Shown here: positions 10,268-52,287 of the stretch, one piece after another
Layout of the letters: each line of letters opens with the position of its first letter
Numbering within the stretch: position 1 is the first letter of the stretch
Source of the DNA: an uncultured Clostridia bacterium
Lineage (GTDB): Bacteria > Bacillota > Clostridia > Christensenellales > Aristaeellaceae
Length of the DNA stretch: 64,000 nt
Assembly: GCA_946534895.1 (NCBI GenBank)
Contig: CAMNDE010000006.1
Coordinates: 13,504-77,503, forward strand
Direction of reading: 5' to 3'
Translations under genes and position numbers: made by a program
Notes under the pieces: model-generated
The model's input: the letters and a program-made list of their open reading frames with translations, nothing else
Databases searched by the model: none
Told to the model about the DNA's origin: nothing

Positions 10268-13267
<3,000 letters not shown>

Positions 13268-16869: not shown

Positions 16870-16895
16870 GCTGATTCCCGGATAATACTGTCAGT

Positions 16896-16934: not shown

Positions 16935-16973
16935 TGTGTGCGTTTACAGATAATTATTTTTGGGGGTTCTGAC

Positions 16974-18269: not shown

Positions 18270-18284
18270 GGAGGGCGCTTCGCA

Positions 18285-19580: not shown

Positions 19581-19596
19581 GAAGGTGAAGAGAACG

Positions 19597-21057: not shown

Positions 21058-21061
21058 CATC

Positions 21062-21736
21062 ATGAGCTTGCTTGAACTGAGAAATATATCGAAGATTTAC
21101 GGGGAATTAAAGGCACTGGATAATGTGAGCATCCATGTGGACCAGGGGGAATGGGTGGCGATCATGGGACCTTCCGGCAGCGGAAAGAGCACCATGATGA
21201 ACATTATCGGGTGCATGGACAAGCCCACCAAGGGCGAGGTTCTGCTGGACGGCGTGGACATTGCCAAGGAGAGCAGCAAAAAGCTGACGGACATCCGCAG
21301 GGACAAGATCGGCCTGATCTTCCAGCAGTTCCACATGGTCAATTACCTGACCGCCGTGGAAAACGTGATGGTGTCCCAGTACTATCACTCTATGCCCGAT
21401 GAAAAGGAAGCCCTGGAGGCTCTGGAGCGTGTGGGCCTCAGGGAGCGTGCACGGCATCTGCCCAGCCAGCTGTCCGGCGGCGAGCAGCAGCGTGTGTGCG
21501 TGGCGCGGGCGCTGATCAATCATCCCGAGCTGGTCCTGGCCGACGAACCCACCGGCAACCTGGACGAAGCCAATGAAAACATTGTGCTGGGTCTGTTTGC
21601 CCAGCTCCACAGGGAGGGCACCACCCTGATCGTGGTTACCCATGACCCGGAGGTGGCGGAAGCCGCCCAGCGCACCATTGTGCTGGAGCACGGCAAGGTC
21701 GCCCGTGAAATCATCAACGAAAACTTCGGAAAATAA
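21062..21736 (+). CDS. ABC transporter ATP-binding protein (MacB/LolD type)
   Basis: Walker A GPSGSGKST, signature LSGGEQQR, Walker B LVLADEPT. Confidence 0.9.
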   Translation: MSLLELRNISKIYGELKALDNVSIHVDQGEWVAIMGPSGSGKSTMMNIIGCMDKPTKGEVLLDGVDIAKESSKKLTDIRRDKIGLIFQQFHMVNYLTAVENVMVSQYYHSMPDEKEALEALERVGLRERARHLPSQLSGGEQQRVCVARALINHPELVLADEPTGNLDEANENIVLGLFAQLHREGTTLIVVTHDPEVAEAAQRTIVLEHGKVAREIINENFGK

Positions 21737-21762
21737 CGATAACGGAAACAGGGGATTGAACC

Positions 21763-22149
21763 ATGAAAAAGCAGACAATACCCGCCGTCATTCTTCTGGC
21801 TGCAGCGCTGGTGACTGCGATCGGCAGCCAGACCTTCCTTTCCCCCTGCGTCCATGAAGACGGTTCCTTTGGTCCGTGTCACTGGGCAGGACAGACGCTT
21901 CTGGGACTGGGCTGTGTGCTTGGCGTTATGGCAGTGCTCTGCCTGTGCGTGAAACGTGCGCGGCAGGGTGCGTATCTCAGCGCCCTGCCCGTGTGCCTTA
22001 TGGGCATTGCGACGCCGGGCACGCTGATTGACATCTGCCATATGAGCACCATGCAGTGCCGGATGGTGATGCAGCCCGCCATGATCATCCTGTTTTCGCT
22101 TGCGCTGATCACTGCCCTGACCGGCGCGATCCTGACCGGGAGAGAGTAA
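21763..22149 (+). CDS. DUF4418-like small Cys/His-rich membrane protein
   Basis: 128 aa, 4 predicted TM segments. SPCVHEDGSFGPCHW and CHMSTMQC motifs. RBS GGGGA. Confidence 0.65.
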   Translation: MKKQTIPAVILLAAALVTAIGSQTFLSPCVHEDGSFGPCHWAGQTLLGLGCVLGVMAVLCLCVKRARQGAYLSALPVCLMGIATPGTLIDICHMSTMQCRMVMQPAMIILFSLALITALTGAILTGRE

Positions 22150-22156
22150 CGAGCCG

Positions 22157-23356
22157 ATGAAAAACTTTTCCTTATCTGTCAAAAACCTGACCCGCAGGCC
22201 GGGACGTACGCTGGCGCTGACCCTTCTGACCGCCTTCCTTGCGCTGGCGGTCTTTGGCGGATCGGTGGTGGTGCTCTCGCTGCGCAGCGGACTGAACAGT
22301 CTGGAGGCCCGGCTTGGCGCGGATATCATTCTGGTGCCCTCCGAGGCCCAGAGCAAGGTGAGCTTCCAGAACATGTTCCTGCAGGGAACCACAGGCGCGT
22401 TTTACATGGATGCTTCCGCCCTGGACCAGGCACTGGAAGTGGAAGGCGTGGAAAAGGCCGCGCCGCAGACTTTCCTGGCCTCCCTGAAAGCGGACTGCTG
22501 TTCCATCAAGATCCAGGTGATCGGCATTGACCCGCAGCGGGATTTCACGGTGCAGCCCTGGATTTCCCGGAGTCTTACGCGGGAACTGGGAGACATGGAC
22601 GTGGCTGTGGGCTGCAAGGTGGAAGCGGAAGTGGGAGAAATCATCCGTATCTATGATCAGCGCTGCAAGGTGGTTGCGCGGCTCGAAGCCACCGGTACCG
22701 GGCTGGATACGGCTGTGTACTGCAATATGGACACCATGAACACGCTGCTTCAGGCGGCGGAGGCCATGGGCGTAAGCCACCGGATTGAAAGCGGGGACCA
22801 GGTGATCTCCGCTGTGTATGTAAAGGTAAAGGATGGCTGCGATATCGGCACGGTCAACAGTCAGCTGAACGGACATATCCGCAAGGTGACCGCTGTGCGC
22901 ACGCGCAGCATGATCACCGGCGTATCGGACAGTCTGGCGGGCATCAGCCGCACAGTCACAATACTGATTGTGGCGGTATGGGTTCTGGCGTTCATGATTC
23001 TGCTGCTGGCTTTTGCACTGATCATCCGGGAAAGGTCCAGAGAGTTTGCCGTACTCCGGCTAGTGGGTGCATCCCGCGGCATGCTCTCGCGCCTGGTGCT
23101 GCAGGAGTCTTCCGTGTGCGGGCTGCTGGGCGGACTGACCGGCATTCTGGTGGCGGCGCTGTTTCTGTTTCCCTTCGCCCAGCTCATTGAAAGCGCACTG
23201 AAGCTTCCGTATCTGATGCCGGATACGGGGAAGGTGCTGCTGCTGGCAGGAGGAACCATGCTTCTTTCCGTGCTTGTGGCGGCGCTGGCCAGCATTGCCG
23301 CCGCGTACCGCCTGAGCCGGGTGGATCCCGGCATCGCCCTGCGGGAGGGAAACTGA
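22157..23356 (+). CDS. ABC transporter permease, FtsX-like
   Basis: 399 aa. TM1, an extracytoplasmic domain, then an FtsX bundle (ERSREFAVLRLVGAS). Confidence 0.85.
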   Translation: MKNFSLSVKNLTRRPGRTLALTLLTAFLALAVFGGSVVVLSLRSGLNSLEARLGADIILVPSEAQSKVSFQNMFLQGTTGAFYMDASALDQALEVEGVEKAAPQTFLASLKADCCSIKIQVIGIDPQRDFTVQPWISRSLTRELGDMDVAVGCKVEAEVGEIIRIYDQRCKVVARLEATGTGLDTAVYCNMDTMNTLLQAAEAMGVSHRIESGDQVISAVYVKVKDGCDIGTVNSQLNGHIRKVTAVRTRSMITGVSDSLAGISRTVTILIVAVWVLAFMILLLAFALIIRERSREFAVLRLVGASRGMLSRLVLQESSVCGLLGGLTGILVAALFLFPFAQLIESALKLPYLMPDTGKVLLLAGGTMLLSVLVAALASIAAAYRLSRVDPGIALREGN

Positions 23357-25524: not shown

Positions 25525-25594
25525 GACAGCGCGCCGGCTCTGTGCGTGTTCACGGCTGCTGTCCTGTGGAAAAGCGAAAGGAAGCTGACGCACC

Positions 25595-26074
25595 ATGATA
25601 TTTGTGCAGCTCGTTCTGTTCTGTACCGCGTTCACTCTTTTGGTGAAGCTCGGTGTCGGAAAACGTGCACTGAACGGTCTGTTTTTCTATCCGGAGCCTG
25701 TGCAGGAGAAGGCGTATGCCCTGGGCCTGGCCAGCCGGGCGTCCGTGGCCCGGAGGCGGAAATGGTTCATGCCCGTGTTTGTTCTGGTGATGCTGGCAGC
25801 GCTGCTGCTGATCATTGGACTGTGGAACGGGATTCATGAATTCCGGCCGGCCTATCTGCAGGCGCTTTTGTTTCTCGAAGTCATGAACTGGTATGACGGG
25901 ATCGTCATTGACCGCCTCTGGGTCGGACACAGCCGCTTCTGGGTCATTCCCGGACTGGAGGACATTCCCTTTGTGCAGACCTGGCCGCAGGTGCTGAAAA
26001 AGCGCGGTATTCTGACAGGCATCTGGATTGTCGGAGCCGCGGCTGTTGCGGGACTGACAGTGCTCATTTTCTGA
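25595..26074 (+). CDS. hypothetical membrane protein
   Basis: 159 aa, 3-4 hydrophobic segments. RBS GAAAGGAAG. No family recognised. Confidence 0.6.
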   Translation: MIFVQLVLFCTAFTLLVKLGVGKRALNGLFFYPEPVQEKAYALGLASRASVARRRKWFMPVFVLVMLAALLLIIGLWNGIHEFRPAYLQALLFLEVMNWYDGIVIDRLWVGHSRFWVIPGLEDIPFVQTWPQVLKKRGILTGIWIVGAAAVAGLTVLIF

Positions 26075-26321
26075 GCAGCATGGCAGGAGCCCGAGCGCTT
26101 CCGACCGGAGATGCATAGAGCCTGGAGAAAAGATGGAAACCGATATGAAATACGGAATGTATGGAGCCATGGTGCCCCTGCTGGTCCGCAGGCCTGCGTT
26201 TGCATACCTGGATAAAACGGCTCCCGGCGTGGATGCGGATGCTGTCAGGAAAGCGTGAGGCAGAAAATCATGCGAGACGGAAAAGTAGGCAGCATCTGAA
26301 GGGGAAGCATATGTATCATAT

Positions 26322-26344
26322 GCCGGCGGATCAGCCGGCTTTTT
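26322..26344 (+). terminator. intrinsic terminator closing the plus-strand unit
   Basis: GCCGGC-GGATCA-GCCGGC followed by TTTTT (26340-26344). Confidence 0.5.
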
Positions 26345-26426
26345 CTGTACCGGAAAACAGCGAGTGTGCAAACCATGAAACGGCTTTTCCCGGTTATCCT
26401 GAAACCCTGCAATGCGGAAATCGGGA

Positions 26427-26460
26427 AACAAAAAAGCACGGCGGCAGTATGCCGCCATGC
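26427..26460 (-). terminator. intrinsic terminator after the hydrogenase cluster
   Basis: 11-bp stem (26436-26446 / 26450-26460, one G-U pair). The minus strand continues TTTTTTGTTT. 8 nt past the stop at 26468. Confidence 0.65.
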
Positions 26461-26467
26461 GATTGTG

Positions 26468-27889
26468 CTACTGAAGAGGTGAGATGGCATCCAGAATGGT
26501 TTTTTCCAGGGCTTCACGGCCATAGCTGTCCACGGCGGCCCTGTTCTTTTCACCGTGGGTCAGATTGCCTGCACCGCCAATGCAGCCGCTCACGCACGCC
26601 ATGCCCTCGATAAAATTGGCGTCCAGCGCATTCCGGCTCTTTTTGAGCAGGGCAATGCGGCATTCCTCGATGCCGTCGCAGGCGCAGGCTTTCAGCTGGA
26701 AGTCATCCAGATGCTGTTCCTTCAGGCCCTCGGCCACAGCGTCGGACAGACCGCCGCTGCGGGCGAAGATCCGGCCGAAGTAGCTGGCATTGTCCAGCAC
26801 ATCCTCGGGCAGGGTGGTAATGTCGATGTCCCTGCTGTCCAGAAGAGCCTGCAGTTCCTCAAAGGTGATGGCGGCATCTACATAGGGCTTCACATCGTCC
26901 AGCTGCACTTCAGCCTTTTTGGCAGTGCAGGGGCCGATGAATACGATTTTGACGTTCTCATCGTGTTCCCTGATGTATTTGGCGATGGTTGCCATCGGTG
27001 ACAGATTATGGGAGATATAGGGAACCAGTGCCGGGAAGGCGGTCCTGACATAGCGCACGAAGGCGGGACAGCAGGAGGATGTGAGGAACCCCTTTTCCGT
27101 CAGCTCCCTGGATTCGGCCTGTGCCACCATATCCGCGCCAAGGGCGGCTTCCACGACAGTGTAGAAGCCCAGCTTCTTGATGCCGGTGACGACCTGACCG
27201 AGTTTGGCGTAATTCAGCTGGCTGCCGATGGCAGGCGCTACCAGGGCGTAAACCTTGTATCGGGTATTGTCCTGGCTTTTTTTCAGCATGTCGATCACAT
27301 TGATGATAAAGGACCGGTCTGTAATCGCGCCAAAGGGACACTGGTATACGCATGCGCCGCACTGGATGCACTTTTCGTCGTCGATCTTGGCTGCGTTGCC
27401 CTCATTGATGGAAATGGCCTTGATTTTGCAGGCGTTCTGACAGGGACGCTTGCGGTTGACAATGGCGCTGTAGGGGCAGACTTTGGCGCACTGGCCGCAT
27501 TCCACGCACTTGGTTTTGTCGATGTGGGCCTCGTGCTTGTGGTCAAAGGAGATTGCGCCGCGTCTGCATGCATCCTCGCACCGATGGGCCAGACATCCCC
27601 GGCAGGAATCAGTCACCTGATAGCCCACGGCGGGACAGTCGTCACAGGCAATATCGATTACATTGATGATGTTGGCAGGATTGCCGCCGCCCATGGCCAG
27701 TTTGACGCGCTCGGCCAGGATGGCCCGCTCCTTGTACACGCAGCAGCGCATGGTGGGCACTTTGCCGGGGACGATCATTCTGGGAATGTCCAGCACGTTG
27801 TCCAGCAGTGTGTCATTCCAGGCCTGCCGGGCCACTTCCCGCAGCACCTTGTATTTCAGGTATTGGACTTTGGTATCAAACTTGTACAT
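26468..27889 (-). CDS. [FeFe] hydrogenase, group B-like (catalytic-type H-domain with N-terminal 4Fe-4S domains)
   Basis: 473 aa. H-cluster motifs TSSCCPAFV, IGPCTAKKAE and EGMACVSGCIGGAG. Two CxxCxxCxxxCP ferredoxin motifs. RBS AAGGAG. Confidence 0.85.
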   Translation of the reverse strand: MYKFDTKVQYLKYKVLREVARQAWNDTLLDNVLDIPRMIVPGKVPTMRCCVYKERAILAERVKLAMGGGNPANIINVIDIACDDCPAVGYQVTDSCRGCLAHRCEDACRRGAISFDHKHEAHIDKTKCVECGQCAKVCPYSAIVNRKRPCQNACKIKAISINEGNAAKIDDEKCIQCGACVYQCPFGAITDRSFIINVIDMLKKSQDNTRYKVYALVAPAIGSQLNYAKLGQVVTGIKKLGFYTVVEAALGADMVAQAESRELTEKGFLTSSCCPAFVRYVRTAFPALVPYISHNLSPMATIAKYIREHDENVKIVFIGPCTAKKAEVQLDDVKPYVDAAITFEELQALLDSRDIDITTLPEDVLDNASYFGRIFARSGGLSDAVAEGLKEQHLDDFQLKACACDGIEECRIALLKKSRNALDANFIEGMACVSGCIGGAGNLTHGEKNRAAVDSYGREALEKTILDAISPLQ

Positions 27890-27898
27890 GTCTGCTCC

Positions 27899-29068
27899 TT
27901 AGAAATAACTGACTTTGATGCGCTTGCCCATCTTCTTGAGGGCTTCCGACAACTCGTGCACCAGATTCATTTTGATGTTGAAGTTGATGGGCAGGTCAGG
28001 ATTCTGATGGGCCGGATTGATGGCTTTGCCCACATAGAAGTTGATGTCGGTGGCCTCCTCAAACAGCAGGCGGCTGATCATGGATGCGCCGTCCCTGCCG
28101 TTGCTCCAGGCTTCGTAGCGTTTGTTTTCGCCGATGTAATCCTTGGCGTATTCCACTACCCGGTTCACCGTGATCACGCCTTCGGTGACCAGGTCCACGC
28201 CCTCAAGATAGGCAATGGGCGGAATGTCATCGGTAAAATCCAGGGATGCGCGCAGCGGCTTGTCCAGCCATTTGGCGGCAATGGAGGAGGTGGTGCCTCC
28301 GCAGATGATGTGCTTGCCTTCCTTGGCGAAGAACAGGCTCATCATGCGGTTGCCGTCGTCCCGGTTGCTGGGCGGGCCGAAGAGCATGTTCATGGGCACG
28401 CGCTTGCGGATGCGCACCACACAGGAGGTGGCGTCGTCCCCGGGCTTCCCGCCGTAGAGCTTGTTGCACTCGTCCACCAGCAGGGTAGAGAGATTCTTGG
28501 CCGTGTAGCCGCACAGATTCATGGCTTCCATGAAGGTGATTATATCTTCCCGCTTCCAGCCGAAATTGTAGGCGATGCCGATGCCGGCGTGTGGACAGCC
28601 ATCGCTCATGGCGATGAAGACGTCATCCTCCTGCAGGCGAATCAGCGAACGAAAAATCAGCTTGCCGCCAATGGTGGTTTCTGTGCGGGGATATTCCCAA
28701 TTTTCACCGTTTCGCAGCACGATCACCTGGGGATTGTCATACTGGATCAGTTCCGCCGTCTGGTTGCGGATCAGGCGGATGATGGTGAAGGTGGAATAGG
28801 CCACGCCCCGCATGGAATCCACCGGCAGGGTGGCGGCGATGGTTTCCACGCACTCCTCGATGGACAGCCCTGCGGCCAGCATGGTGGAAATGATCTTGCT
28901 GGTGAGGGTGGACAGGATGCTGGCTTTTACGCCGCTGCCCAGGCCGTCGGCCAGCACGATCACCGTGGAGCCATCCTCCTGCTCCACCACCTCCACATGG
29001 TCGCCGCAAAGCTGCTCGCCCACGTGGTTGACGCTTTTATAGCCGATATCACAAGTCAAATCATTCAT
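27899..29068 (-). CDS. SpoIIE/PP2C-family serine phosphatase with an uncharacterised C-terminal domain
   Basis: 389 aa. CGDHVEVV...VLADGLGSGVKASI, IAMSDGCPHAG and GDDATSCVVRI (PP2C metal-binding Asp motifs). About 170 extra C-terminal residues. 8-nt overlap with the upstream gene. Confidence 0.85.
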   Translation of the reverse strand: MNDLTCDIGYKSVNHVGEQLCGDHVEVVEQEDGSTVIVLADGLGSGVKASILSTLTSKIISTMLAAGLSIEECVETIAATLPVDSMRGVAYSTFTIIRLIRNQTAELIQYDNPQVIVLRNGENWEYPRTETTIGGKLIFRSLIRLQEDDVFIAMSDGCPHAGIGIAYNFGWKREDIITFMEAMNLCGYTAKNLSTLLVDECNKLYGGKPGDDATSCVVRIRKRVPMNMLFGPPSNRDDGNRMMSLFFAKEGKHIICGGTTSSIAAKWLDKPLRASLDFTDDIPPIAYLEGVDLVTEGVITVNRVVEYAKDYIGENKRYEAWSNGRDGASMISRLLFEEATDINFYVGKAINPAHQNPDLPINFNIKMNLVHELSEALKKMGKRIKVSYF

Positions 29069-30737
29069 TGGTAATGGACTCCTTCAGCTTGGACAAGGCG
29101 ATCTTGGTTTCCGCGGCGGTTTCGCCAAGCAGGCTGGCGATCTCCTGCACGATGCGCATCTGCTTGTCCACCACCTTGTCGGCCACTTCCACGGTCTGGC
29201 GGCTGATCTCCTCCCGCTGGCGGCGGGCTTCCTCCTCGTCGCTCACGTCGCGCATGATGCACAGCAGCATGCGGCCGTCCTCGGCGGGCACGATGGTCTG
29301 CTGGATGGTGCAGCCGTATTCGGCCAGGTAGGAACGCTGATGGAAAATGCCGCGGCCCGTGTTTTTCACCTTCAGGAAAGGCGCGGGGTCCAGGATGCGG
29401 ATCACCTGGTCGCCCAGCACGGCGTTTTCGGAGTGCAGCTTCAGGATCTTGAGGGCGGCAGGATTGATCTGCTGAACTTCCAGTTGATCGTTGAGCATGA
29501 TGATGCCGTTGGGGCTGTTGCGGGCAATGGTATCGTTGACGTTTTCGGCCTTCTCCATCAGATAGGGCAGGCACATGGAGATTTCCGCCTTGCCCTGGTA
29601 GATGGCAATGGCTTTTTCCCGGCAGGTATCATAGCCGCAGGAGCCGCAGTTGAGTTCCTGGCTGGGCTTGAACTTGCCCATCTTGCGCAGGATATCCCGG
29701 ATCTCGGTTTCGCTGGGCATGACAGCCCGCTGATCGATGGGCTCAAAGCGCTTCCGCAGCTGGCGGATCTCCGGCTGGTCGATCTCAAAATCCCTGGTGC
29801 CGGCGTACTGAGCCACTGCCAGATAGTCCTTGAGCGGGCTGTGCCCGTATTTTTCCATGACCGGGCCGCCGGCGCAGCTGCCCACGCAGGCACTCATTTC
29901 GATGAAGCAGTGATGGATTTTTCCTGCCTCAATCTCCCTGAGTGCCGCGATGCAGTTCTCCACGCCGTCCAGCGCCAGATAGCTGAAACCAGGCGCGTCC
30001 ATGGCCATGGTTTTCAGGATGCCGCCGGTGGTGGGAAAGAAGCGGGCAAGGCTGTGTTCGTCCGGCTGCTGCCGGCGCTGGATTTCGATGCCTTCCTTTT
30101 TCAGCCAGTTGGTCAGTTCCTCATAGGTCAGCACGGCGTCCACAATGCCTTCGTAGTATTCCGCCTCATCCTTCTTGGCCACGCAGGGGCCGATGAATAC
30201 GGTTTTCGCGTTGGGAATCCGCCGCTTGATGTCCTCGCAGTGGGCCTGCATGGGCGACAGTACATCTGCCAGACAGGGCAGCACCCGCGGGAAATACTTC
30301 TGGATCAGCAGGTTGATGGAATGGCAGCAGGAGGAGATGACTACGTCCCGGTTTTCTTCCTTCAGGATACGGTCATATTCCCGCTTGACCAGCGTGGCGC
30401 CGAGAGCGGTTTCCTCCACGTCGTAGAAGCCCAGCTTTTTCAGCGCTTCCCGCATGGCTTCAATGCCCACTCCGTCATAGTTGGCCACAAAGGAGGGCGC
30501 CAGGGACACCACCACCGGATCACCGCTCTGGATGAGTACTCTGGCCTTTTCGGTTTCGTCCACGATTTCCTTGGCGTTCTGCGGGCAGACCACAAAGCAG
30601 TGTCCGCAGAGGATGCATTCATTGCCGATAATGTGTGCCTGGTTGCCGGAGAAGCGTATGGACTTCACCGGGCAGTGGCGAATGCACTTGTAGCAGTTTT
30701 TGCAGTTGGATTTTTTCAGCGTCAGACAGTTCGGCAT
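29061..30737 (-). CDS. hydS: sensory-type [FeFe] hydrogenase (group C, HydS/HfsB-like) with PAS domain
   Basis: 558 aa. Two N-terminal 4Fe-4S motifs. Altered H-cluster motifs SSCCHS, IGPCVAKKDE and EMSACVGSCAGG. An extra C364-x2-C-x4-C-x16-C389. A PAS-like segment from about 400-500, then a coiled-coil tail. Confidence 0.85.
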   Translation of the reverse strand: MPNCLTLKKSNCKNCYKCIRHCPVKSIRFSGNQAHIIGNECILCGHCFVVCPQNAKEIVDETEKARVLIQSGDPVVVSLAPSFVANYDGVGIEAMREALKKLGFYDVEETALGATLVKREYDRILKEENRDVVISSCCHSINLLIQKYFPRVLPCLADVLSPMQAHCEDIKRRIPNAKTVFIGPCVAKKDEAEYYEGIVDAVLTYEELTNWLKKEGIEIQRRQQPDEHSLARFFPTTGGILKTMAMDAPGFSYLALDGVENCIAALREIEAGKIHHCFIEMSACVGSCAGGPVMEKYGHSPLKDYLAVAQYAGTRDFEIDQPEIRQLRKRFEPIDQRAVMPSETEIRDILRKMGKFKPSQELNCGSCGYDTCREKAIAIYQGKAEISMCLPYLMEKAENVNDTIARNSPNGIIMLNDQLEVQQINPAALKILKLHSENAVLGDQVIRILDPAPFLKVKNTGRGIFHQRSYLAEYGCTIQQTIVPAEDGRMLLCIMRDVSDEEEARRQREEISRQTVEVADKVVDKQMRIVQEIASLLGETAAETKIALSKLKESITNE

Positions 30738-30739
30738 GC

Positions 30740-30979
30740 TTACACCCTTGCTTTAATCTCTTTTTCGAAGAAGGAAGAAACCGTTTCCGGGGACACGGAG
30801 AAGAATTCCCCGTCCACCGTGACGCACACGCCCTGCTGGCATTTGCCCATGCAGAAGGTGCCGCCCAGTTCGATCTTGTCGCTCAGGTTTTCTTTGGCGA
30901 TCAGGTCCTGCAATTGCTCCACCACGGGCCGGGAACCCTTGATATGGCAGGAAGAACCGATACAAACTGTAACTTTCAT
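30740..30979 (-). CDS. thioredoxin-like [2Fe-2S] ferredoxin (NuoE/HfsA-like)
   Basis: MKVTVCIGSSCHIKG...FCMGKCQQG (4 Cys). ATG at 30979 is preceded by AAAGGAGA (6-nt spacer); the track TTG at 30985 was rejected. Confidence 0.75.
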   Translation of the reverse strand: MKVTVCIGSSCHIKGSRPVVEQLQDLIAKENLSDKIELGGTFCMGKCQQGVCVTVDGEFFSVSPETVSSFFEKEIKARV

Positions 30980-31011
30980 TGTCAAATCTCCTTTTTATTG
31001 ATTTTCAAAGA

Positions 31012-31043
31012 GAAGGGGAGCCGCTTCTCTCTTGCTCCCCTTC
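31012..31043 (-). promoter_or_regulatory. stem-loop between the kinase and the [2Fe-2S] gene (weak terminator/attenuator candidate)
   Basis: 10-bp stem GAAGGGGAGC(31012-31021)/GCTCCCCTTC(31034-31043). The minus strand continues TCTTTGAAAAT. Confidence 0.35.
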
Positions 31044-31077
31044 CCATTCAAAGCCAAGCATGCGGAAGAAAACAGAC

Positions 31078-31827
31078 TTAATGATATTCCACCACGCTGG
31101 CCCAGGAGAGCAGGAATTCCCGTTCCTTTTCATTGCCCTTCACCGATTGGCTGGCTGCCACGATGGGCATCCATTTCTGCACATACTGCATGTCTGTGCC
31201 GCTCTTTTCGCAGAACAGGTTCAGGTATTCCTTGGCCCCTTCGATATCGCCGTTCAGCCAGAACAAAAGATAGGTACGCGCCGCGTCGGCGGAGGCGTTG
31301 CCCTGGGTCACATGGCTCCAGTCGATCACGTAGGGCGTGCCGTCCTGGCTGATAATCACGTTGGAGGGCCAGAAATCGCCGTGGCACACCTTGTTGTGGG
31401 TGGGCATGCCCTCCAGCCGAGCATGCAGGTCATAGCGGGTGGTTGCGTCCAGATCGGCCTGGCTGATCTTGCGGCTCATCTTGTCCTTAAGCCGATTCAG
31501 CATGGGGCAGGTTTTGCTCTGCACTTCCATCTGGATGTCCACGAACTGATTTAAATACTTCGACTTATTGTCCGGATCTTCCTTCATGAGCTGGGATAAA
31601 GTTTTCCCCTGGATGAATTCGGAGAGAATGGCCCATTTGCCCTCGATCATGGTCACGCCCAGGATCTTGGGAATATGCAGCCCGGTTTCCTCGATGCGGG
31701 CCTGGTTCAGCGCTTCATTGAGGATATCGGCCTTGGAATAGTTTTCGTTGAACACTTTGACGCACTGGTCGCCATCCCGGTAAATGGTCTTGGCGTTACG
31801 TACGGCAATCACACGATCCAGATTCAT
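31078..31827 (-). CDS. APH/choline-kinase-fold phosphotransferase (putative protein kinase)
   Basis: 249 aa. Catalytic loop VCHGDFWPSNVII and metal-binding VIDWSH. RBS GAAGGAGGAG. Starts 16 nt after the adhE stop. Confidence 0.8.
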   Translation of the reverse strand: MNLDRVIAVRNAKTIYRDGDQCVKVFNENYSKADILNEALNQARIEETGLHIPKILGVTMIEGKWAILSEFIQGKTLSQLMKEDPDNKSKYLNQFVDIQMEVQSKTCPMLNRLKDKMSRKISQADLDATTRYDLHARLEGMPTHNKVCHGDFWPSNVIISQDGTPYVIDWSHVTQGNASADAARTYLLFWLNGDIEGAKEYLNLFCEKSGTDMQYVQKWMPIVAASQSVKGNEKEREFLLSWASVVEYH

Positions 31828-31843
31828 GGTTTTCTCCTCCTTC

Positions 31844-34546
31844 TCACTTTTTCCGGCCGGTCCGATAGGCCTTCTTCACAGCGTCGTCCTGCACAGCGCC
31901 CAGGTCGTCCGCCGTGGGCTTCGGTGCTTCAGCAAAATGCTTTTCGCCGTAATAGGCATTCAGATACATCTGCCGGATTTCACTCATGAGCGGGTAGCGC
32001 GGATTGGCACCGGTGCACTGGTCATCGAAGGCCTGCTCCACCATGTCGTCCAGCCGGTTCAGGAAGTCCTTCTCATCCGGCACATAGTCCCGGATGGTGG
32101 GCTTGATGTCCACATAGGTCTTCAGGTCGTTGATCATCTTGATCAGGCCTTCCAGCTTGTCGCGGTCGCTAGTGCCCTTCACGCCCAGTGCTTCGGCCAC
32201 TTCGGCGTAGCGGCGCAGGGTATGGGGATGATCGTACTGCGGGAAGGTACCCATCTTGGCAGGGGCTTCGGCGGCATTGAAGCGCAGCACCTCTTCGATC
32301 ATCAGTGCGTTGGCCACGCCGTGGGGGATATGGTGGAAGGCGCCCAGCTTATGGGCCATGGAGTGGCACACGCCCAGGAAGGCGTTGGCAAAGGCCATGC
32401 CGGCCATGGTGGCGGCGTTGGCCATCTTTTCCCGGGCCTCCACGTCCGTCAGACCGTTGTCATAGGCTCTGGGCAGGTATTCAAAGATGGTCTGCAGCGC
32501 CTTGATGGCGAGGCCGTCAGTGTAATCCGTGGCCATCATGGAGGCGTAGGCTTCCAGTGCGTGGGTCACCGCGTCAATGCCGCTGGCAGCGGTCAGACCT
32601 TTGGGCGCGGTCATATGGAAGTCCGTGTCAACAATGGCCATATTGGGCAGCAGCGCATAATCCGCCAGGGGATATTTCACGCCGCTCTGTTCGTCGGTGA
32701 TCACGGCGAAGGGGGTTACCTCACTGCCGGTGCCGGCAGAGGTGGGGATGGCGATGAAATAGGCCTTTTCGCCCATTCTGGGGAAGGTGTATACACGCTT
32801 GCGGATGTCCATGAAGCGCATGGCCATATCCTGGAAATCGACCTCGGGATGCTCGTAGAGCACCCACATGATCTTGCCGGCATCCATGGCGCTGCCGCCG
32901 CCAAGGGCGATGATCACATCGGGCTGAAACAGGCGCATCTGCTCCGCGCCGGCCTTGGCACAGGCCAGGGTGGGATCGGGAGCCACATCAAAGAAGGTGG
33001 CGTGCTGAATGCCCAGTTCATCCAGCTTTTCGGTGATGGGCCGGGTATTGCCGTTGTGATAGAGGAAGCTGTCCGTGACGATAAACGCCTTCTTTTTGCC
33101 CATCACGTGCTTGAGCTCATCCAGCGCCACCGGCAGGCAGCCTTTCTTGATATACACCTTTTCCGGCGCACGGAACCACAGCATGTTCTCTCTCCTTTCG
33201 GCTACGGTTTTGATGTTCAGCAGGTGCTTGACGCCCACATTTTCGGATACGGAATTACCACCCCAGCTTCCGCAGCCCAGCGTGAGGGAAGGAGCCATTT
33301 TGAAGTTGTACAGATCCCCGATGCCGCCCTGGGAAGAAGGCGTGTTCACCACAATGCGGCAGGTCTTCATCCGGGCCGCGAAGGCATCCAGCACCTCAGG
33401 CTTCTTCTGGGTGTCGGCATACAGGGAAGCGGTGTGGCCGTAGCCACCGTCGGCGATCAGACGTTCTGCCTTGCTGAAGGCATCCTCCAGATCACGGGCG
33501 CGGTACATGGCCAGCACGGGACTGAGCTTTTCATGGGCAAATTCCTCGGAAAGCTCCACGGAATCCACTTCACCGATCAGCACCTTGGTGCCTTCCGGCA
33601 CGGTAACGCCTGCCAGGGAAGCGATCCTGCAGGCGCTCTGGCCCACGATTTTGGCATTCAGTGCGCCATTGATCAGGATGGTATGACGCACCCTGTCCAG
33701 CTCAGTGTCTTTGAGGAACCAGCAGCCGCGGCTGGCAAATTCGGTTTTGACCGTCTCATATATGCTGTCCAGCACGATCACGCTCTGCTCGGAGGCGCAG
33801 ATCATGCCGTTGTCAAAGGTTTTGGAATGGATGATGGAATTGACCGCCAGCACCAGGTTGGCGCTGTCGTCGATGACGGCGGGCACGTTGCCCGCGCCCA
33901 CGCCCAGGGCGGGCTTGCCGCTGGAATAGGCAGCCTTCACCATGCCGGGGCCGCCGGTGGCCAGGATAATATCCGCTTCCCGCATCAGGGTGTTGGTCAT
34001 GTCCAGGGAAGGCACGTCGATCCAGCTGATGATGCCCTCCGGCGCGCCGGCCTTCACCGCCGCGTCCAGCACCACCTTCGCCGCGGCAATGGTGGATTTC
34101 TTTGCCCGGGGATGGGGGCTGAAAATGATGCCGTTGCGGGTTTTCAGGCAGATCAGCGCCTTGAAAATGGCGGTGGAGGTGGGATTGGTGGTGGGAATGA
34201 CCGCCGCTACCACGCCGATGGGCTCGGCAATCTTCTTCATGCCGTAAGCCTTGTCTTCCTCGATGACGCCGCAGGTCTTGGTATCCCGATAGGCGTTGTA
34301 AATGTATTCGCTGGCGTAGTGGTTCTTGATCACCTTGTCCTCCACCACGCCCATGCCGGTTTCCTCCACGGCCAGCTTGGCCAGGGGGATGCGGGCCTGG
34401 TTGGCAGCCGTAGCTGCGGCCAGGAAGATTTTATCCACCTGCTCCTGGGTATAGCCGGCGTAAATCTGCTGGGCGGCGCGCACCCGCGCGATGGCCGCTT
34501 CCAGCGTTTCCACGCTGTCCACCATGTCAAATGCTTTGGTATCCAT
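31844..34546 (-). CDS. adhE: bifunctional acetaldehyde-CoA/alcohol dehydrogenase
   Basis: 900 aa. ALDH half (ICASEQS catalytic Cys) plus an iron-ADH half (GGGSAMDAGK, HSMAHKLG). ATG at 34546 is preceded by GAGGAGGAA; the 11 upstream track codons were trimmed. Confidence 0.95.
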   Translation of the reverse strand: MDTKAFDMVDSVETLEAAIARVRAAQQIYAGYTQEQVDKIFLAAATAANQARIPLAKLAVEETGMGVVEDKVIKNHYASEYIYNAYRDTKTCGVIEEDKAYGMKKIAEPIGVVAAVIPTTNPTSTAIFKALICLKTRNGIIFSPHPRAKKSTIAAAKVVLDAAVKAGAPEGIISWIDVPSLDMTNTLMREADIILATGGPGMVKAAYSSGKPALGVGAGNVPAVIDDSANLVLAVNSIIHSKTFDNGMICASEQSVIVLDSIYETVKTEFASRGCWFLKDTELDRVRHTILINGALNAKIVGQSACRIASLAGVTVPEGTKVLIGEVDSVELSEEFAHEKLSPVLAMYRARDLEDAFSKAERLIADGGYGHTASLYADTQKKPEVLDAFAARMKTCRIVVNTPSSQGGIGDLYNFKMAPSLTLGCGSWGGNSVSENVGVKHLLNIKTVAERRENMLWFRAPEKVYIKKGCLPVALDELKHVMGKKKAFIVTDSFLYHNGNTRPITEKLDELGIQHATFFDVAPDPTLACAKAGAEQMRLFQPDVIIALGGGSAMDAGKIMWVLYEHPEVDFQDMAMRFMDIRKRVYTFPRMGEKAYFIAIPTSAGTGSEVTPFAVITDEQSGVKYPLADYALLPNMAIVDTDFHMTAPKGLTAASGIDAVTHALEAYASMMATDYTDGLAIKALQTIFEYLPRAYDNGLTDVEAREKMANAATMAGMAFANAFLGVCHSMAHKLGAFHHIPHGVANALMIEEVLRFNAAEAPAKMGTFPQYDHPHTLRRYAEVAEALGVKGTSDRDKLEGLIKMINDLKTYVDIKPTIRDYVPDEKDFLNRLDDMVEQAFDDQCTGANPRYPLMSEIRQMYLNAYYGEKHFAEAPKPTADDLGAVQDDAVKKAYRTGRKK

Positions 34547-35183
34547 ACTGTTCCTCCTCTTCCGGTTTTCCTGTCTCACTGGCTGTCATTCGGAGATAAG
34601 CCAGGGATAAAGCGATGTTTTCCTGATGCACGGTCACATGGGACGGCACTTTGATGGGGACCGGCGCAAAACTGAGGATTGCATTCAGTCCGGCGGCTAT
34701 CATCTCATTGGCGGCTGTCTGGGCTGCCGCGGACGGTACCGTCAGTATGCCCGCCTGAACGGGATGCGAAGCGCAGAAGTCATTAAGCCGGTTCATGGGG
34801 TACACCGGAGTGTGCCCGTGAAATAAAGGCAAAGCGGAAGCGTGCAGGTCAAAGGCAGCGATGATTTCCATGCCGTAATCCCTGAAGCCGTCGTATTCCA
34901 TCAGGGCTGAGCCCAGCCTGCCCGCGCCGACAATCACCGCGGAGACGGGCATGTCCACGCCCAGTGTTCTCTCCAGATCCCGGAGAAGAACCTGGACGGG
35001 ATAGCCAACCTTGGGAAGCCCGGCTGTGCATATGCGGGCAAGGTCCTTGCGCACCTGAACTTCGCCCAGCCCCAGTCCTCTGGCGATCTGCGTGGCGGAA
35101 ACCTTTTCCGCATCCATTCTGCGCAGATAGCGCAGATACATGGGCAGTCGTCCCAGTGTCGCTTTTGAAAGCGTACTCTGCAA
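34527..35183 (-). CDS. rex: redox-sensing transcriptional repressor Rex
   Basis: SKATLGRLPMYLRYL wHTH plus Rossmann motif VIVGAGRLGSAL. TTG at 35183 is preceded by AAGGGGG (8-nt spacer), giving the usual length of about 218 aa. The alternative start at 35243 is not excluded. Confidence 0.85.
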   Translation of the reverse strand: MQSTLSKATLGRLPMYLRYLRRMDAEKVSATQIARGLGLGEVQVRKDLARICTAGLPKVGYPVQVLLRDLERTLGVDMPVSAVIVGAGRLGSALMEYDGFRDYGMEIIAAFDLHASALPLFHGHTPVYPMNRLNDFCASHPVQAGILTVPSAAAQTAANEMIAAGLNAILSFAPVPIKVPSHVTVHQENIALSLAYLRMTASETGKPEEEEQYGYQSI

Positions 35184-35293
35184 AGGAGCAGCCCCCTTTC
35201 GATACACATCATATCGAATTGCCGGGGCTTTGCGAATTACCAAAACCGTATAGCCGATATATCACAGTTGATAAGTTGCGCTCCATTATGTGC

Positions 35294-35331
35294 AAAAAAA
35301 GAAGCTTTGCTGCCGGATGCGACAGCAAAGC
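35294..35331 (-). terminator. intrinsic terminator after LysR gene
   Basis: Stem GCTTTGCTG(35304-35312)/CAGCAAAGC(35323-35331). The minus strand continues TTCTTTTTTT. Confidence 0.65.
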
Positions 35332-35347: not shown

Positions 35348-36277
35348 TTATTCTCTTTTGGGAATACAGGCGCGCCTGGACCGGGTCAGCTCCGTGATAA
35401 AGCACTTGTCCAGTTCTGTCAGCTGGTAGTCCTGCCGGTGAATCAGCATATCCCGGTACATCCGCTGATTATCCGCACATTTCCGCTGCACCAGATGCAG
35501 CTGACGCAGAAGCCGCTCCGGCAGGGGCGATACCCACATAAAGGTTTCAGGGTTTTCGGCAAGCAGATCCAGCTGACTTCCCCGTTCAAACACGAAGATG
35601 CGCCTTGGCGTCTGCGGCAGCTCCTCATCCCGGACCGCAGAAAGCGGCAGGGAAGGCACGTAAGGATCGGCGTGCGCAATCTGGATGTAGTGCTGCAGAT
35701 CGGAAAAATGGATCGTGTCCATGGCTGCAAGGCCGCAGTCTTCCCGCATGACAAGCACATACCTGAACTCCGCGACGATTTCACCGCTCAGGCCCTTCTC
35801 CGCCATCATCTGCTTGAAATACTTATCGTAGCCTGCCGCATAGCGGATGATGCCCAGGTTATATCCGACCTCCAGGATGTTTTTCACTGCGTGCAGCGCA
35901 TTGGTTTCCTGGTAAAAGATTTCCACGTTATCCTTTCCCAGCAACCGGGAAAAGGAAGCAAAGGCATCCGATATATAACTGGCCCTGGGCACGGAAATGG
36001 AAAAACGCCGTTTGCCGGGTTTCCGTTCCTTGTACTGGCTTTCCATCTCGTCCACCTGCTCCAGAATCTTCTGTGCCTGACGGACAAAGAGTTCACCGTC
36101 CGGGGTGAGCATCATGCCTTTGGATGAGCGGCGGAAGAACTGGATGCCAAGGTCCGATTCCATTTCCCTGACCACTCTGCTCAGATTGGGCTGGGCAACA
36201 TGCAGTTCTTCTGATGCCCGGTTAAGGGAACCGTTTTCTGCAATGGAAACCACATATTTCAGATGCAGGATATTCAT
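35348..36277 (-). CDS. LysR-family transcriptional regulator
   Basis: 309 aa. N-terminal HTH MNILHLKYVVSIAENGSLNRASEELHVAQPNLSRVV plus a LysR substrate-binding domain. Confidence 0.9.
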   Translation of the reverse strand: MNILHLKYVVSIAENGSLNRASEELHVAQPNLSRVVREMESDLGIQFFRRSSKGMMLTPDGELFVRQAQKILEQVDEMESQYKERKPGKRRFSISVPRASYISDAFASFSRLLGKDNVEIFYQETNALHAVKNILEVGYNLGIIRYAAGYDKYFKQMMAEKGLSGEIVAEFRYVLVMREDCGLAAMDTIHFSDLQHYIQIAHADPYVPSLPLSAVRDEELPQTPRRIFVFERGSQLDLLAENPETFMWVSPLPERLLRQLHLVQRKCADNQRMYRDMLIHRQDYQLTELDKCFITELTRSRRACIPKRE

Positions 36278-36480: not shown

Positions 36481-37392
36481 TCACTGTACGGTGTCTTCCG
36501 GGGCGTTTGCGCCCGGATTCCCGCGCTTGCCCTGCTCTGAAGTCCGGTAGGCGGTGGGACTGAGTCCGTAATACTTTTTGAAGGCTGCCGAGAAGACCAG
36601 CTGATCGCTGTATCCGGACCTGGAAGTGATTTCCTTGACGGAGAGGGATGTGTCCCGCAGAAAAGATGCGGCATGGCGCATGCGGCATGCGATGAGATAC
36701 TGCTGCGCGGAACGCTTCAGCTCTTTCTGGAAGGCGCGGTTCAGCGTGGTACGGGAAATGCCGATATGGCTGGCCACATCCTCCACGGTGATCGAGGAAT
36801 GCATGTACATTTCCTTGATATAGGCGCGACCGAGCTCGGCATAGAGGACGTCCGGTGATTCGGTTCTGGTGAATTCCAGACCGCCGCTGGTCTTTTCATA
36901 TTCTGCTGCCAGCAGGGAGAAAAGATGGATCATGCAGGCTTCCCGTGCCAGGGTGTCGGAGGCGGAGAGGGACCTGCGGCCGATGATGTTCTCGATGCAG
37001 GCCAGTACCTGATCGGTTTCCTTCAGGGGAAGCACCAGCTGATCCCGGGTGAATCCGCACTTGCGGAGGACGGTTTCTGCCCGTACGCCCTGAAACCCGA
37101 TCCAGGCATAGGACCACGGGTGATTGCTGTCCGAGCCGTATACGATGGGTTCACCCGGGCGGATGAGAAACATCTGTCCGGCATGAAGGGCGTGGGTCTT
37201 GTCCCGGGCGGAATAAAAGCCCGCTCCGGAGAGGACAAAATGAAGAATGTATTCTGTGCGCGGTACGGACACAATATGAAACGGCTTGCAGTCTTCTGTA
37301 CCCACATGAACCAGCGTCAGTTCCAGAGAAGGTTCCACCAGCCCTTCCAGAACACGGTAGGAACTGCTGGAGAAAAATGCTGCGTTTTTCAT
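36481..37392 (-). CDS. AraC-family transcriptional regulator (cupin sensor + HTH)
   Basis: Start MKNAAFF at 37392 follows GGGAGGAA. C-terminal HTH_18 (ISRTTLNRAFQKE...GYSDQLVFSAAFKKYYGLSPTAYR). Divergent from the alpha-galactoside genes. Confidence 0.85.
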   Translation of the reverse strand: MKNAAFFSSSSYRVLEGLVEPSLELTLVHVGTEDCKPFHIVSVPRTEYILHFVLSGAGFYSARDKTHALHAGQMFLIRPGEPIVYGSDSNHPWSYAWIGFQGVRAETVLRKCGFTRDQLVLPLKETDQVLACIENIIGRRSLSASDTLAREACMIHLFSLLAAEYEKTSGGLEFTRTESPDVLYAELGRAYIKEMYMHSSITVEDVASHIGISRTTLNRAFQKELKRSAQQYLIACRMRHAASFLRDTSLSVKEITSRSGYSDQLVFSAAFKKYYGLSPTAYRTSEQGKRGNPGANAPEDTVQ

Positions 37393-37461
37393 GATTCCTC
37401 CCAGCTGCTTCCCATGCAGCGCGGTATTCGTCTGAAACATTTTAACATATCAGAAGCGATT

Positions 37462-37473
37462 TGAACATGTTCA
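37462..37473. promoter_or_regulatory. perfect 12-bp palindrome TGAACATGTTCA in the divergent promoter region
   Basis: Read directly from the sequence, overlapping a TTGAAC -35-like hexamer with TATAAT at 37479-37484. Role unknown. Confidence 0.25.
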
Positions 37474-37559
37474 TATTCATATAATTTGGCTACGTCAGAA
37501 TATTTCAAATCTGGTAAGAATGGGACATAATCAGCACAACAAAGGGACGCGAGAGGGGC

Positions 37560-39221
37560 ATGAACGTGTTTGAAACCATCAAGCGTGCTCCGGATGCGGT
37601 AGAGGTCGAAAGCAGGGCCGCAGTCGGAAATGACATAGATCATGGAAAGTTCTGCCTGAAGGATGTCACGGTAGAGGCAAAGGCAGGAAAAGACGGACTG
37701 GAGATCAGTGTGGCGGCGGAGAAAACGCCGGTGAGCCGCGTAAGACTGCGCTGGCATTTTGGGGAAAAGCTGCGCGGCCGGGTGCTGGGAGATGCATGGG
37801 AGCGTGCCTATGCCGATCTGGAATGGGAAACCATTACACCCTGGCACACGCTGCCGTGGTACTGCCTGGTCAATGACGGCACAAGCACCGTGGGATACGG
37901 TGTAAAAACCCGGGCCGGGGCCATCTGCTCATGGCAGATCGATCCGGAAGGCGTCACCCTGAAGCTGGATGTGCGCTGCGGCGGGGACGGAGTGCTGCTG
38001 AACGGAAGAGTCCTGCATGCGGCCACGGTGGTTTCCGAGCTGTATGAAGACATGAGTGCCTTTGTGGCGGCCCAGGCGTTCTGCCGCAGGATGAATACGG
38101 ACCCGATTCTGCCGGAAAAGCCGGTTTACGGGGCCAACAACTGGTACTACGCCTACGGGCGCAGTTCCCGGGAAGACATCCTGAAGGATGCGGAGTATCT
38201 GGCAAAGCTCACGGAAGGCGTGGAGAACAGGCCGTACATGGTCATAGATGACGGCTGGCAGACCGGGCGTTATGACGCCCAGGGCTGCTACGAGAAGATC
38301 TACAACGGAGGCCCCTGGGTCCCGAATGACCGGTTCGGGGACATGCGGGAGCTGGCCCGGGAGATCAGTGAGCGCGGAGTGATCCCGGGTATCTGGGTCC
38401 GGCTGCTGCAGGATGATCTGAGCGGCCTGCCGGACACATGGAAGCTGCCTGCCGGCGGCCTGGATCCGTCAGTGCCCGGTGTGCTGGATCTGGTCCGGGA
38501 AACCGTGAAAACCATTGCAGACTGGGGCTATCGGCTGCTGAAGCATGATTTCAGTACCTTTGACATGGTGGGCCGCTGGGGCGGTGAGATGCCCGATGAG
38601 ATGGCCAAGGACGGCTGGCACTTTGCGGACCGCACGAGAACCACAGCGGAAATCATGGTCGGTCTGTACCGGACGATTTATGAGGCCGCAAAGCCTTCCG
38701 GCATGCTGATTCTCGGCTGCAACGCGGTGGGCCATCTGGGAGCGGGACTCATGCACATGAACCGCACCGGAGATGACACCAGCGGGCTCATGTGGGAGCG
38801 GACGCTGCGCTTCGGTGTCAATACGCTGGCCTTCCGGATGCCTCAGCACGGCGCGTTCTATGATACGGACGCGGACTGCATGGGCATTACCGGCGGGATT
38901 CCCTGGTCGTTCAACCGGCAGTGGGGCAGGCTGCTGAGCCTGAGCGGAACATCCATGTTCGTGTCGGTGAAGCCGGGTTCCCTGACGCCGGACGAGGAAC
39001 AGGAACTGTCCGAAATGCTTCGCGAAAACGCCCGGAGGCGTGCCCCGGCGGAACCGCTGGACTGGCAGGATACCGGGCTTCCCCAGGAATGGCTGCTGGA
39101 CGGTCAGAAGACAGATTTTCACTGGTATGAGCCCGCAGGACTCAGGATCGGCTGCGCGGGCGGGCCCGTGTGGGAACGCGTATGGCGGGAGGTTTCCGCC
39201 GTGCTGGATGCAAAGGAATGA
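37560..39221 (+). CDS. clan GH-D (alpha-galactosidase-like) glycoside hydrolase, family uncertain
   Basis: 553 aa. YMVIDDGWQ, YRLLKHDF (nucleophile-type KxD) and NRTGDDTS (acid/base-type) blocks resemble GH27/GH36 active-site strands. Confidence 0.7.
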   Translation: MNVFETIKRAPDAVEVESRAAVGNDIDHGKFCLKDVTVEAKAGKDGLEISVAAEKTPVSRVRLRWHFGEKLRGRVLGDAWERAYADLEWETITPWHTLPWYCLVNDGTSTVGYGVKTRAGAICSWQIDPEGVTLKLDVRCGGDGVLLNGRVLHAATVVSELYEDMSAFVAAQAFCRRMNTDPILPEKPVYGANNWYYAYGRSSREDILKDAEYLAKLTEGVENRPYMVIDDGWQTGRYDAQGCYEKIYNGGPWVPNDRFGDMRELAREISERGVIPGIWVRLLQDDLSGLPDTWKLPAGGLDPSVPGVLDLVRETVKTIADWGYRLLKHDFSTFDMVGRWGGEMPDEMAKDGWHFADRTRTTAEIMVGLYRTIYEAAKPSGMLILGCNAVGHLGAGLMHMNRTGDDTSGLMWERTLRFGVNTLAFRMPQHGAFYDTDADCMGITGGIPWSFNRQWGRLLSLSGTSMFVSVKPGSLTPDEEQELSEMLRENARRRAPAEPLDWQDTGLPQEWLLDGQKTDFHWYEPAGLRIGCAGGPVWERVWREVSAVLDAKE

Positions 39222-39264
39222 TTTGCCGTCAGGCAATTCATCATAGAAAAAGGAGGACAAAACC

Positions 39265-44206: not shown

Positions 44207-44263
44207 CCATCCTGCGGGATGCATGAGGGCATCCATGACCGGACGATAAAGGAGCGATCAATC

Positions 44264-52275: not shown

Positions 52276-52287
52276 GGAGGAAGAAAA

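Follow-up and report, generated by a model that had tools for sequence, protein, structure and literature searches.

How do fermenting gut bacteria sense H2, and how does the signal reach the genes that decide where electrons go? The partial pressure of H2 steers gut and rumen fermenters between acetate plus H2, which feeds methanogens, and the disposal of electrons as ethanol. The sensor pathway behind this H2-dependent ethanol switch is still unsolved in the literature. We analysed a stretch of 64,000 nucleotides (nt) with a GC content of 57% from an uncultured Clostridia bacterium of the Aristaeellaceae (contig CAMNDE010000006.1; hereafter the window). Seven minus-strand genes are packed there within 35243-26427. 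They encode the repressor Rex, the alcohol dehydrogenase AdhE, an APH-fold kinase, a [2Fe-2S] protein (the gene is called fdx below), the hydrogenase HydS, a PP2C phosphatase and a second [FeFe] hydrogenase, in this order. Judged from sequence, the cluster is the counterpart of a published operon of Ruminococcus albus 7, and the hypothesis that HydS acts on adhE and hydA2 has likewise been published already. What the present analysis adds to the known operon is an upstream LysR-type regulator together with a conserved dyad.

Structure of the gene cluster

The features of the cluster are listed in the order of transcription (aa, amino acids).

34527..35183, minus strand: rex, 218 aa from the likely TTG start at 35183, NADH/NAD+-sensing repressor (NF003994 208.6 bits, cutoff 130; GxGxxG motif)
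31844..34546, minus strand: adhE, bifunctional acetaldehyde-CoA/alcohol dehydrogenase, 900 aa (NF010378 1384 bits, cutoff 951)
31078..31827, minus strand: APH-fold phosphotransferase, 249 aa (Pfam APH 51.8 bits)
31010..31045, minus strand: hairpin within the kinase-fdx gap, 12-bp stem, no U-tract
30740..30979, minus strand: fdx, thioredoxin-like [2Fe-2S] protein, 79 aa, in an HfsA-like position (PF01257 31.2 bits)
29061..30737, minus strand: hydS, putative H2-sensing group C [FeFe] hydrogenase, 558 aa (Fer4, Fe_hyd_lg_C, PF04060, PAS_8)
27899..29068, minus strand: SpoIIE/PP2C phosphatase, 389 aa (PF07228 at residues 32-220, 50.9 bits)
26468..27889, minus strand: HydA2/HfsD-type ferredoxin-dependent group B hydrogenase, 473 aa (TIGR04105 557 bits, cutoff 450)
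26427..26460, minus strand: intrinsic terminator closing the unit, 11-bp stem (8 G-C pairs) followed by the T-run TTTTTTGTTT

The open reading frame (ORF) called for rex runs from 35243 to 34527. The start of the gene is likely the TTG at 35183, since a ribosome-binding site, GAAAGGGGG, precedes it and the NCBIfam match begins at residue 23-25 of the long ORF. The adhE gene starts with ATG, is preceded by GAGGAGG and overlaps rex by 20 nt. The kinase gene follows after 16 nt, the kinase-fdx gap of 98 nt contains the hairpin, and only 2 nt separate fdx from hydS. The hydS and PP2C genes overlap by 8 nt, and the last gene begins 9 nt further on. Terminators flank the unit, one ahead of the promoter and one after the last gene. 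The intergenic gaps inside the unit were found to contain no promoter-like site. The first-pass annotation of this DNA had proposed seven same-strand genes with short junctions and a closing terminator; family matches and a reading of the junctions bear out its coordinates.

The Ruminococcus albus 7 operon

A tblastn search of plasmids with the window HydS led to pRUMAL01 of R. albus 7 (71% identity). The genes annotated there are, in order, LysR, rex, adhE, phosphotransferase, fdx, fdx, hydS, SpoIIE and hydrogenase. Each of the seven window proteins finds its best match in Rumal_3400-3407, with gene order and strand unchanged and BLASTP identities of 47-81%; Rex is 47% identical, AdhE 73%, and the [2Fe-2S] protein 81% to the first of the two copies. 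The loci share the 8-nt overlap of hydS with the PP2C gene, the LysR gene directly upstream and the dyad element (TATATCGATAAAGATAATATCGATATAC in R. albus). They differ in that the R. albus cluster lies on a 420-kb plasmid, whereas the context of the window looks chromosomal, and in that R. albus has two [2Fe-2S] genes and the window one. Furthermore, rex and adhE are separated by 16 nt in R. albus rather than overlapping by 20 nt, the gap before fdx is 17 nt rather than 98 nt with a hairpin, and the window Rex is divergent.

The abstract of Zheng et al. (2014) reportedly already describes the cluster as a single transcription unit that includes aad, the kinase, the phosphatase and Rex. Later papers (PMC5707799, PMC6776011, PMC10838669) relay the content of that study; Eminoglu et al. 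credit it with the proposal that HydS senses H2 and signals via its PAS domain to the adjacent kinase (PMC5707799). Greening et al. (2019) likewise suggest that the group C enzyme senses H2, and describe a "putative eight-gene cluster" that is 111-fold down when Wolinella takes up H2 (PMC6776011). The changes for Rumal_3400-3407 upon removal of H2 by Wolinella are -130, -121, -114, -109, -107, -122, -101 and -90-fold, with similar read levels across all eight genes (PMC6776011). The LysR gene, Rumal_3399, is not in the list of differentially expressed genes that holds these eight (PMC6776011). Thus neither the arrangement nor the idea behind it is new. The window locus does not open the question of the sensor pathway, because R. 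albus 7 already gives a model operon with transcript data.

These data also change the presumed logic of the locus. It had been read as a switch choosing between ethanol and H2 as electron sinks. In R. albus, AdhE and the ferredoxin-only hydrogenase are induced together at high H2, and acetate with the bifurcating HydABC forms the other route (PMC6776011). Since AdhE and the hydrogenase are co-induced, the model of ethanol versus H2 is inverted.

Conservation across species

A genome scan with an alignment of HydS yielded 80 loci from different species, almost all of them metagenome-assembled genomes (MAGs) of rumen and gut Clostridia, and the seven window proteins were mapped onto them. The full order rex-adhE-kinase-fdx-hydS-PP2C-hydrogenase is present in 21 loci, and 13 more have adhE as the first gene. 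Fewer loci begin with rex-kinase, rex-fdx, kinase or fdx. Where no contig end interrupts the locus, the core fdx-hydS-PP2C-hydrogenase is nearly always present; the MAG locus L003 departs from this, as it has no hydrogenase gene. The 8-nt overlap of hydS with the PP2C gene is conserved in every species examined. Most loci have two fdx genes; the window lineage has one. In more than 45 species the kinase gene sits tightly between adhE and the sensor module, and some loci have the PP2C gene without a kinase. Dozens of species share the identical order, which rules out chance adjacency of the cluster genes. The operon occurs widely among the Oscillospirales and Christensenellales that live in ruminant and human guts. 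One relative that has been cultured, the rumen bacterium Aristaeella lactis, is available and carries the whole gene set, LysR-rex-adhE-kinase-fdx-hydS-PP2C-hydrogenase; its proteins are as long as those of the window and 55-88% identical to them, and the GC content is 56.5%. This likeness puts the window in or close to the Aristaeellaceae/Christensenellales.

The gene order across related genomes is thus widely kept. The physical linkage of all parts that the first-pass annotation emphasised is common, but some loci do without it. The most similar HydS copies, from the MAG loci L003 (93% identity) and L032 (91%), have no rex-adhE-kinase upstream; they may represent a paralogous stand-alone sensor module or a recent rearrangement. 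Monoglobus has the four-gene core alone.

The hairpin in the kinase-fdx gap had been called weak. Its stem is 12 bp long, and the region has a fold energy of -35.8 kcal/mol (z = -2.8). It is not conserved: in R. albus the gap is 17 nt, and most relatives likewise have a gap of about 17-25 nt without a hairpin. A canonical terminator at this place was rejected, as the U-tract is missing and the structure is not conserved. In A. lactis (L083, 8271-8332), a terminator-like hairpin with a T-run sits between fdx and hydS, not between the kinase gene and fdx; the positions of internal hairpins shift within the lineage of the window and A. lactis.

The upstream control region

The region upstream of rex contains a conserved LysR-family gene, absent from the first-pass annotation, and several candidate regulatory elements.

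35348..36277, minus strand: LysR-type regulator gene, 309 aa, directly upstream of rex and with its own terminator (HTH_1 63.8 bits, cutoff 26.6)
35304..35331, minus strand: intrinsic terminator closing lysR, 12-bp stem followed by TTCTTTTTTT; separates lysR from rex
35248..35275, minus strand: conserved dyad, candidate LysR box, CTTATCAACTGTGATATATCGGCTATAC, with TTATC-N6-GATAT, just upstream of the -35 element
35208..35236, minus strand: sigma-70-like promoter, TTCGCA, 17-nt spacer, TATGAT, at the same position as the -35 and -10 elements in related loci
35198..35218, minus strand: inverted repeat over the -10 element, TTCGATA-N7-TATCGAA, where relatives have the Rex box; common to one related locus (L007) only

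Of the 56 loci whose flanks are long enough, 38 have a homolog of the LysR-type gene immediately upstream, among them those of R. albus (Rumal_3399) and A. lactis. The substrate-binding part of the regulator matches LysR_substrate at 18 bits, under the cutoff, and the best NCBIfam matches, CidR and AlsR, are weak. When the promoter regions are stacked, the dyad has a consensus of about 26 nt, TATATCGATA-nn-GATAATACCGATAT, immediately 5' of the -35 element, and the intergenic DNA around it is otherwise unalignable among the loci. The window dyad is the top match to the position weight matrix in the 64 kb (25.2 bits against 16.0 for the next), and beyond it the matrix gave no LysR-type dyad in the window, the runners-up scoring 16 and 14 bits. 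Leave-one-out matrices give scores of at least 14 bits in 30 of the 39 loci with the LysR gene, in 4 of the 31 loci without it and in 0.5% of random 250-nt windows. The Fisher test for co-occurrence of dyad and gene gives p = 7e-8, a value that overstates independence because the species are related. The arrangement is that of candidate LysR-type control: the regulator gene adjoins the operon that it is predicted to control, and the dyad is of the T-N11-A type and lies near -65 to -40.

The second element, seen in related promoters, is the Rex operator. A canonical clostridial Rex box, TTGTTAAAATATTAACAA, overlies the -10 element in about 22 related loci, so that the design shared by the stacked loci consists of the dyad, a sigma-70-type promoter and, in these 22 or so, the Rex box. 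As in the clostridial Rex regulon, where the operator TTGTTAANNNNTTAACAA precedes adhE, the rex gene adjoins adhE and relatives carry boxes over the -10 element; unlike in that regulon, the window promoter lacks the operator. Matches to the actinobacterial/bacillary Rex consensus TGTGAAN6TTCACA are no more frequent in the window than expected by chance, and the promoter has none. The Rex proteins of the window lineage diverge in the wing motif. Of the NADH input that had been proposed for the locus, the rex gene stands, with its NF003994 match of 208.6 bits, whereas a canonical Rex box is found in the relatives and not in the window. With a LysR-type dyad, joined in most species by a Rex box, the conserved promoter design has two parts and offers a possible entry to the output step of the pathway.

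A literature search found no paper connecting LysR with HydS and adhE. One possibility is that the LysR-type regulator is the missing output of the HydS pathway: it would bind the dyad and activate the operon, and the HydS-coupled PP2C phosphatase would control it together with the APH-fold kinase, by a direct or an indirect route. We regard this as a long shot. If true, the wiring of a group C [FeFe] hydrogenase sensor would for the first time be known from end to end.

Proteins of the putative sensor module

HydS has the architecture of group C: two [4Fe-4S] motifs in the N-terminal part, the three cluster-binding motifs of the H-domain, a C-terminal 4-Cys motif and a PAS domain are all present. 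The scores are 165 bits for Fe_hyd_lg_C, 42 bits for the 4-Cys motif PF04060 and 21.6 bits for PAS_8, the last being 0.2 under the Pfam cutoff of 21.8. In the alignment the H-cluster motifs read SSCCHS, GPCVAKKDE and EMSACVGSC. The helical tail beyond the PAS domain is almost invariant and could plausibly serve as an interaction surface.

Comparison with the characterised enzymes TmHydS and TamHydS (PMC10055695, PMC11376134) shows the same domain order, with two [4Fe-4S] motifs, H-domain, 4-Cys motif and PAS, and the same second-sphere substitutions M353->G and M497->S. These group C substitutions go with very low activity in both enzymes (PMC10055695, PMC11376134). The proteins differ at the equivalent of CpI C299, which is alanine in TmHydS and cysteine in the window HydS (SSCCHS), so that both L1-motif cysteines are kept, and the ortholog of the latter is filed as C3. 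No solved structure for proteins of the HydS or HydA2 type, other than those of group A enzymes, was found.

The last gene of the cluster satisfies the group B1/B3 model TIGR04105 and scores 164 bits with the group A model, where the cutoff is 406. Its motifs are TSSCCP, GPCTAKKAE (M353->G) and EGMACVSGC. It is 75% identical to Rumal_3407, which itself scores 577 bits with TIGR04105. In the HydDB-based supplement, Rumal_3405, the ortholog of HydS at 71% identity, is FeFe Group C3 and Rumal_3407 is FeFe Group B, while the main text calls HydA2 "group A1" (PMC6776011). HydS is assigned to group C and the last gene to group B because their R. albus orthologs carry these labels, in agreement with the first-pass annotation. 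None of the three outcomes that the first-pass annotation named as speaking against its reading was seen. By orthology HydS falls into group C, the gene order recurs among relatives, and a response of the orthologous unit to H2 is on record for R. albus.

The metal-binding residues D23, D41, D156, D211 and D212 of the PP2C protein are invariant, and it is predicted to be an active enzyme. Its C-terminal domain of 165 aa (27902-28396, minus strand) is strongly conserved. No Pfam match to this domain was seen at E<=10, and the best hit of a profile search of the PDB had E = 0.08. A search of 1.84 billion proteins places it in a small family of about 1,037 representative clusters, where a PP2C domain (HfsC-type) nearly always precedes it. 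The AlphaFold2 model has a predicted local distance difference test score (pLDDT) below 50 over this part, with an alignment that is shallow as all homologs in it are at least 83% identical. A few proteins of about 162 aa may be stand-alone versions of the domain.

In the kinase, the catalytic residues K24, H149, G150, N156 and D169 are invariant. The [2Fe-2S] protein has the ligand pattern CX4C...CX3C.

The hfs-like core that had been noted in the cluster was found by domain content: a small Fe-S protein, a PAS hydrogenase, PP2C and a ferredoxin-linked hydrogenase follow each other in the same order in hfsABCD of Thermoanaerobacterium saccharolyticum (Shaw 2009; Eminoglu 2017, PMC5707799; PMC11837493). 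The likeness is one of domain content and order, and homology of HfsB with HydS and of HfsD with HydA2 is taken from the literature. Unlike in the window, adhE and rex of Thermoanaerobacterium are at separate loci, and no kinase has been described for the operon. Deletion of hfsA/hfsB raises the adhE transcript 2-3-fold (Eminoglu et al., PMC5707799). A more distant analogy, drawn also in PMC5707799 and PMC6776011, is HoxBC-HoxJ-HoxA of Cupriavidus necator, where a low-activity [NiFe] hydrogenase also serves as H2 sensor and hydrogenase transcription is under phosphorylation-based control. There, however, the metal site and fold are unrelated, and a histidine kinase and response regulator take the place of PP2C, APH-fold kinase, Rex and LysR.

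Possible mechanism and alternatives

The locus is quite likely an H2-responsive "high-H2 fermentation module" under one promoter, the counterpart of the R. albus operon in an uncultured rumen or gut bacterium related to Aristaeella (Christensenellales). Gene identities, orthology, synteny and conserved cis-elements are observed here, and H2-dependent co-expression in R. albus only. The promoter upstream of rex would drive all seven genes, from rex through the hydrogenase. Build-up of H2 would make the bifurcating hydrogenase route unfavourable. AdhE would then re-oxidise NADH, with ethanol as the product, and the ferredoxin-only group B hydrogenase would dispose of reduced ferredoxin, both being on together. 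HydS, as a group C enzyme of low activity, would sense H2 as a change in the redox state of its H-cluster and its accessory Fe-S clusters, and the small [2Fe-2S] protein might take part. The signal might pass to the PP2C phosphatase through the PAS domain and the invariant C-terminal helices, and the phosphatase, perhaps countered by the APH-fold kinase, would set the state of some target. The output would reach the promoter via the dyad for the LysR-type regulator encoded upstream, and in most relatives the Rex operator over the -10 element would add an NADH/NAD+ input.

Several points weigh against this reading. Every step from H2 binding to transcription is inferred. The clostridial Rex operator has no match in the 64 kb, even with up to three mismatches allowed. 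The strong hairpin in the kinase-fdx gap could divide or attenuate the unit. HydS may be more catalytic than the Thermotoga model, because the proton-relay cysteine (SSCCHS), absent from TmHydS, is retained. The literature of 2024 still calls the mechanism of signal transduction in group C unknown, and the hfs operon of Thermoanaerobacterium is treated as the main ferredoxin-linked catalytic hydrogenase. In the structural model, the kinase appears nearest to small-molecule kinases, and its pairing with the phosphatase is a conjecture.

Two of the alternatives concern the unit as a whole. The genes might form two separately controlled units, a Rex/LysR-controlled ethanol operon rex-adhE-kinase and a downstream hfs-type unit fdx-hydS-pp2c-hyd, with the hairpin at 31045-31010 ending or attenuating the first. 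The 98-nt gap with its 12-bp hairpin fits this arrangement, and the modules are indeed apart in many genomes, Monoglobus, L003, L032, L023, L079 and L081 having the hfs-like core only; in T. saccharolyticum, adhE and hfs are at separate loci as well (PMC5707799). On the other hand, the hairpin lacks a U-tract, the gap lacks a promoter-like site, R. albus and most relatives have neither the long gap nor the hairpin, and all eight R. albus genes shift by the same factor (PMC6776011), so we consider two units unlikely. We also find it improbable that HydS is not a dedicated sensor, and that the [2Fe-2S] protein, HydS, PP2C and the hydrogenase constitute a multi-subunit or self-regulating catalytic hydrogenase, H2 acting indirectly via Rex (NADH/NAD+) and a metabolite read by the LysR regulator. 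Such an enzyme would agree with the role of hfs in the Thermoanaerobacterium literature and with the two retained L1-motif cysteines. Moreover, no DNA control elements other than the Rex boxes and the LysR-type site can be recognised, and a domain search found no DNA-binding domain in HydS, PP2C or the kinase. The substitutions tied to very low activity in TmHydS and TamHydS and the presence of a PAS domain argue for a sensor instead. The 100-fold effect in R. albus is probably larger than de-repression by Rex alone usually gives. Finally, deletion of hfsB only raised hydrogenase activity and adhE expression, whereas deletion of the whole operon did not (PMC5707799).

The role of the kinase is a separate matter, and here the alternative is doubtful but deserves somewhat more weight than the two above. 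The APH-fold gene may encode a small-molecule kinase, acting on a metabolite or an antibiotic, that is co-expressed with adhE and is not the partner of PP2C. The AlphaFold2 model (pLDDT 81) has APH(3'), choline/ethanolamine kinase and fructosamine-3-kinase (FN3K) as its top Foldseek matches, with template modelling (TM) scores of about 0.5-0.57. The best family matches are APH and TIGR02172, and PP2C is kept without the kinase in some loci. Against this, faint matches to RIO1, Bud32 and Pkinase hint at an atypical protein kinase, the gene is held tightly between adhE and the sensor module in the species mentioned above, and some APH-fold enzymes phosphorylate proteins. Since aminoglycoside, choline and fructosamine kinases are the solved structures closest to the model, to label the enzyme a Ser/Thr protein kinase would be an assumption, and the kinase/phosphatase pair of the first-pass annotation is unproven.

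Other features of the window

A plus-strand terminator-like hairpin at 26322-26339 opposes the cluster terminator at 26460-26427, the two forming a convergent termination zone. The 302-aa ORF at 25550-26458 on the minus strand is probably spurious, as its start lies within the terminator stem and it has no Pfam match. The antisense plus-strand ORFs at 27008-29074 (688 aa), 29340-31001 (553 aa) and 31784-34654 (956 aa) are most likely shadow ORFs in this 57% GC genome. Rfam and tRNA scans of the window gave no matches.

A few kb from the Fe-S-rich cluster, the plus strand at 14496-23356 encodes an FTR1 iron permease, an FtrD-like membrane Fe-S protein, FMN-binding and FtsX permeases and an ABC ATPase, a putative iron-uptake or efflux block. 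Genes at 10301-13267, 36481-40869, 44219-46480 and 50611-53532 encode, respectively, a GH2 beta-galactosidase, an AraC regulator with sugar-binding proteins, a GH36 alpha-galactosidase, and a GH13 amylase with a binding protein. In keeping with an Aristaeella-like placement, these glycoside hydrolase and sugar genes point to a saccharolytic lifestyle in the gut or rumen.

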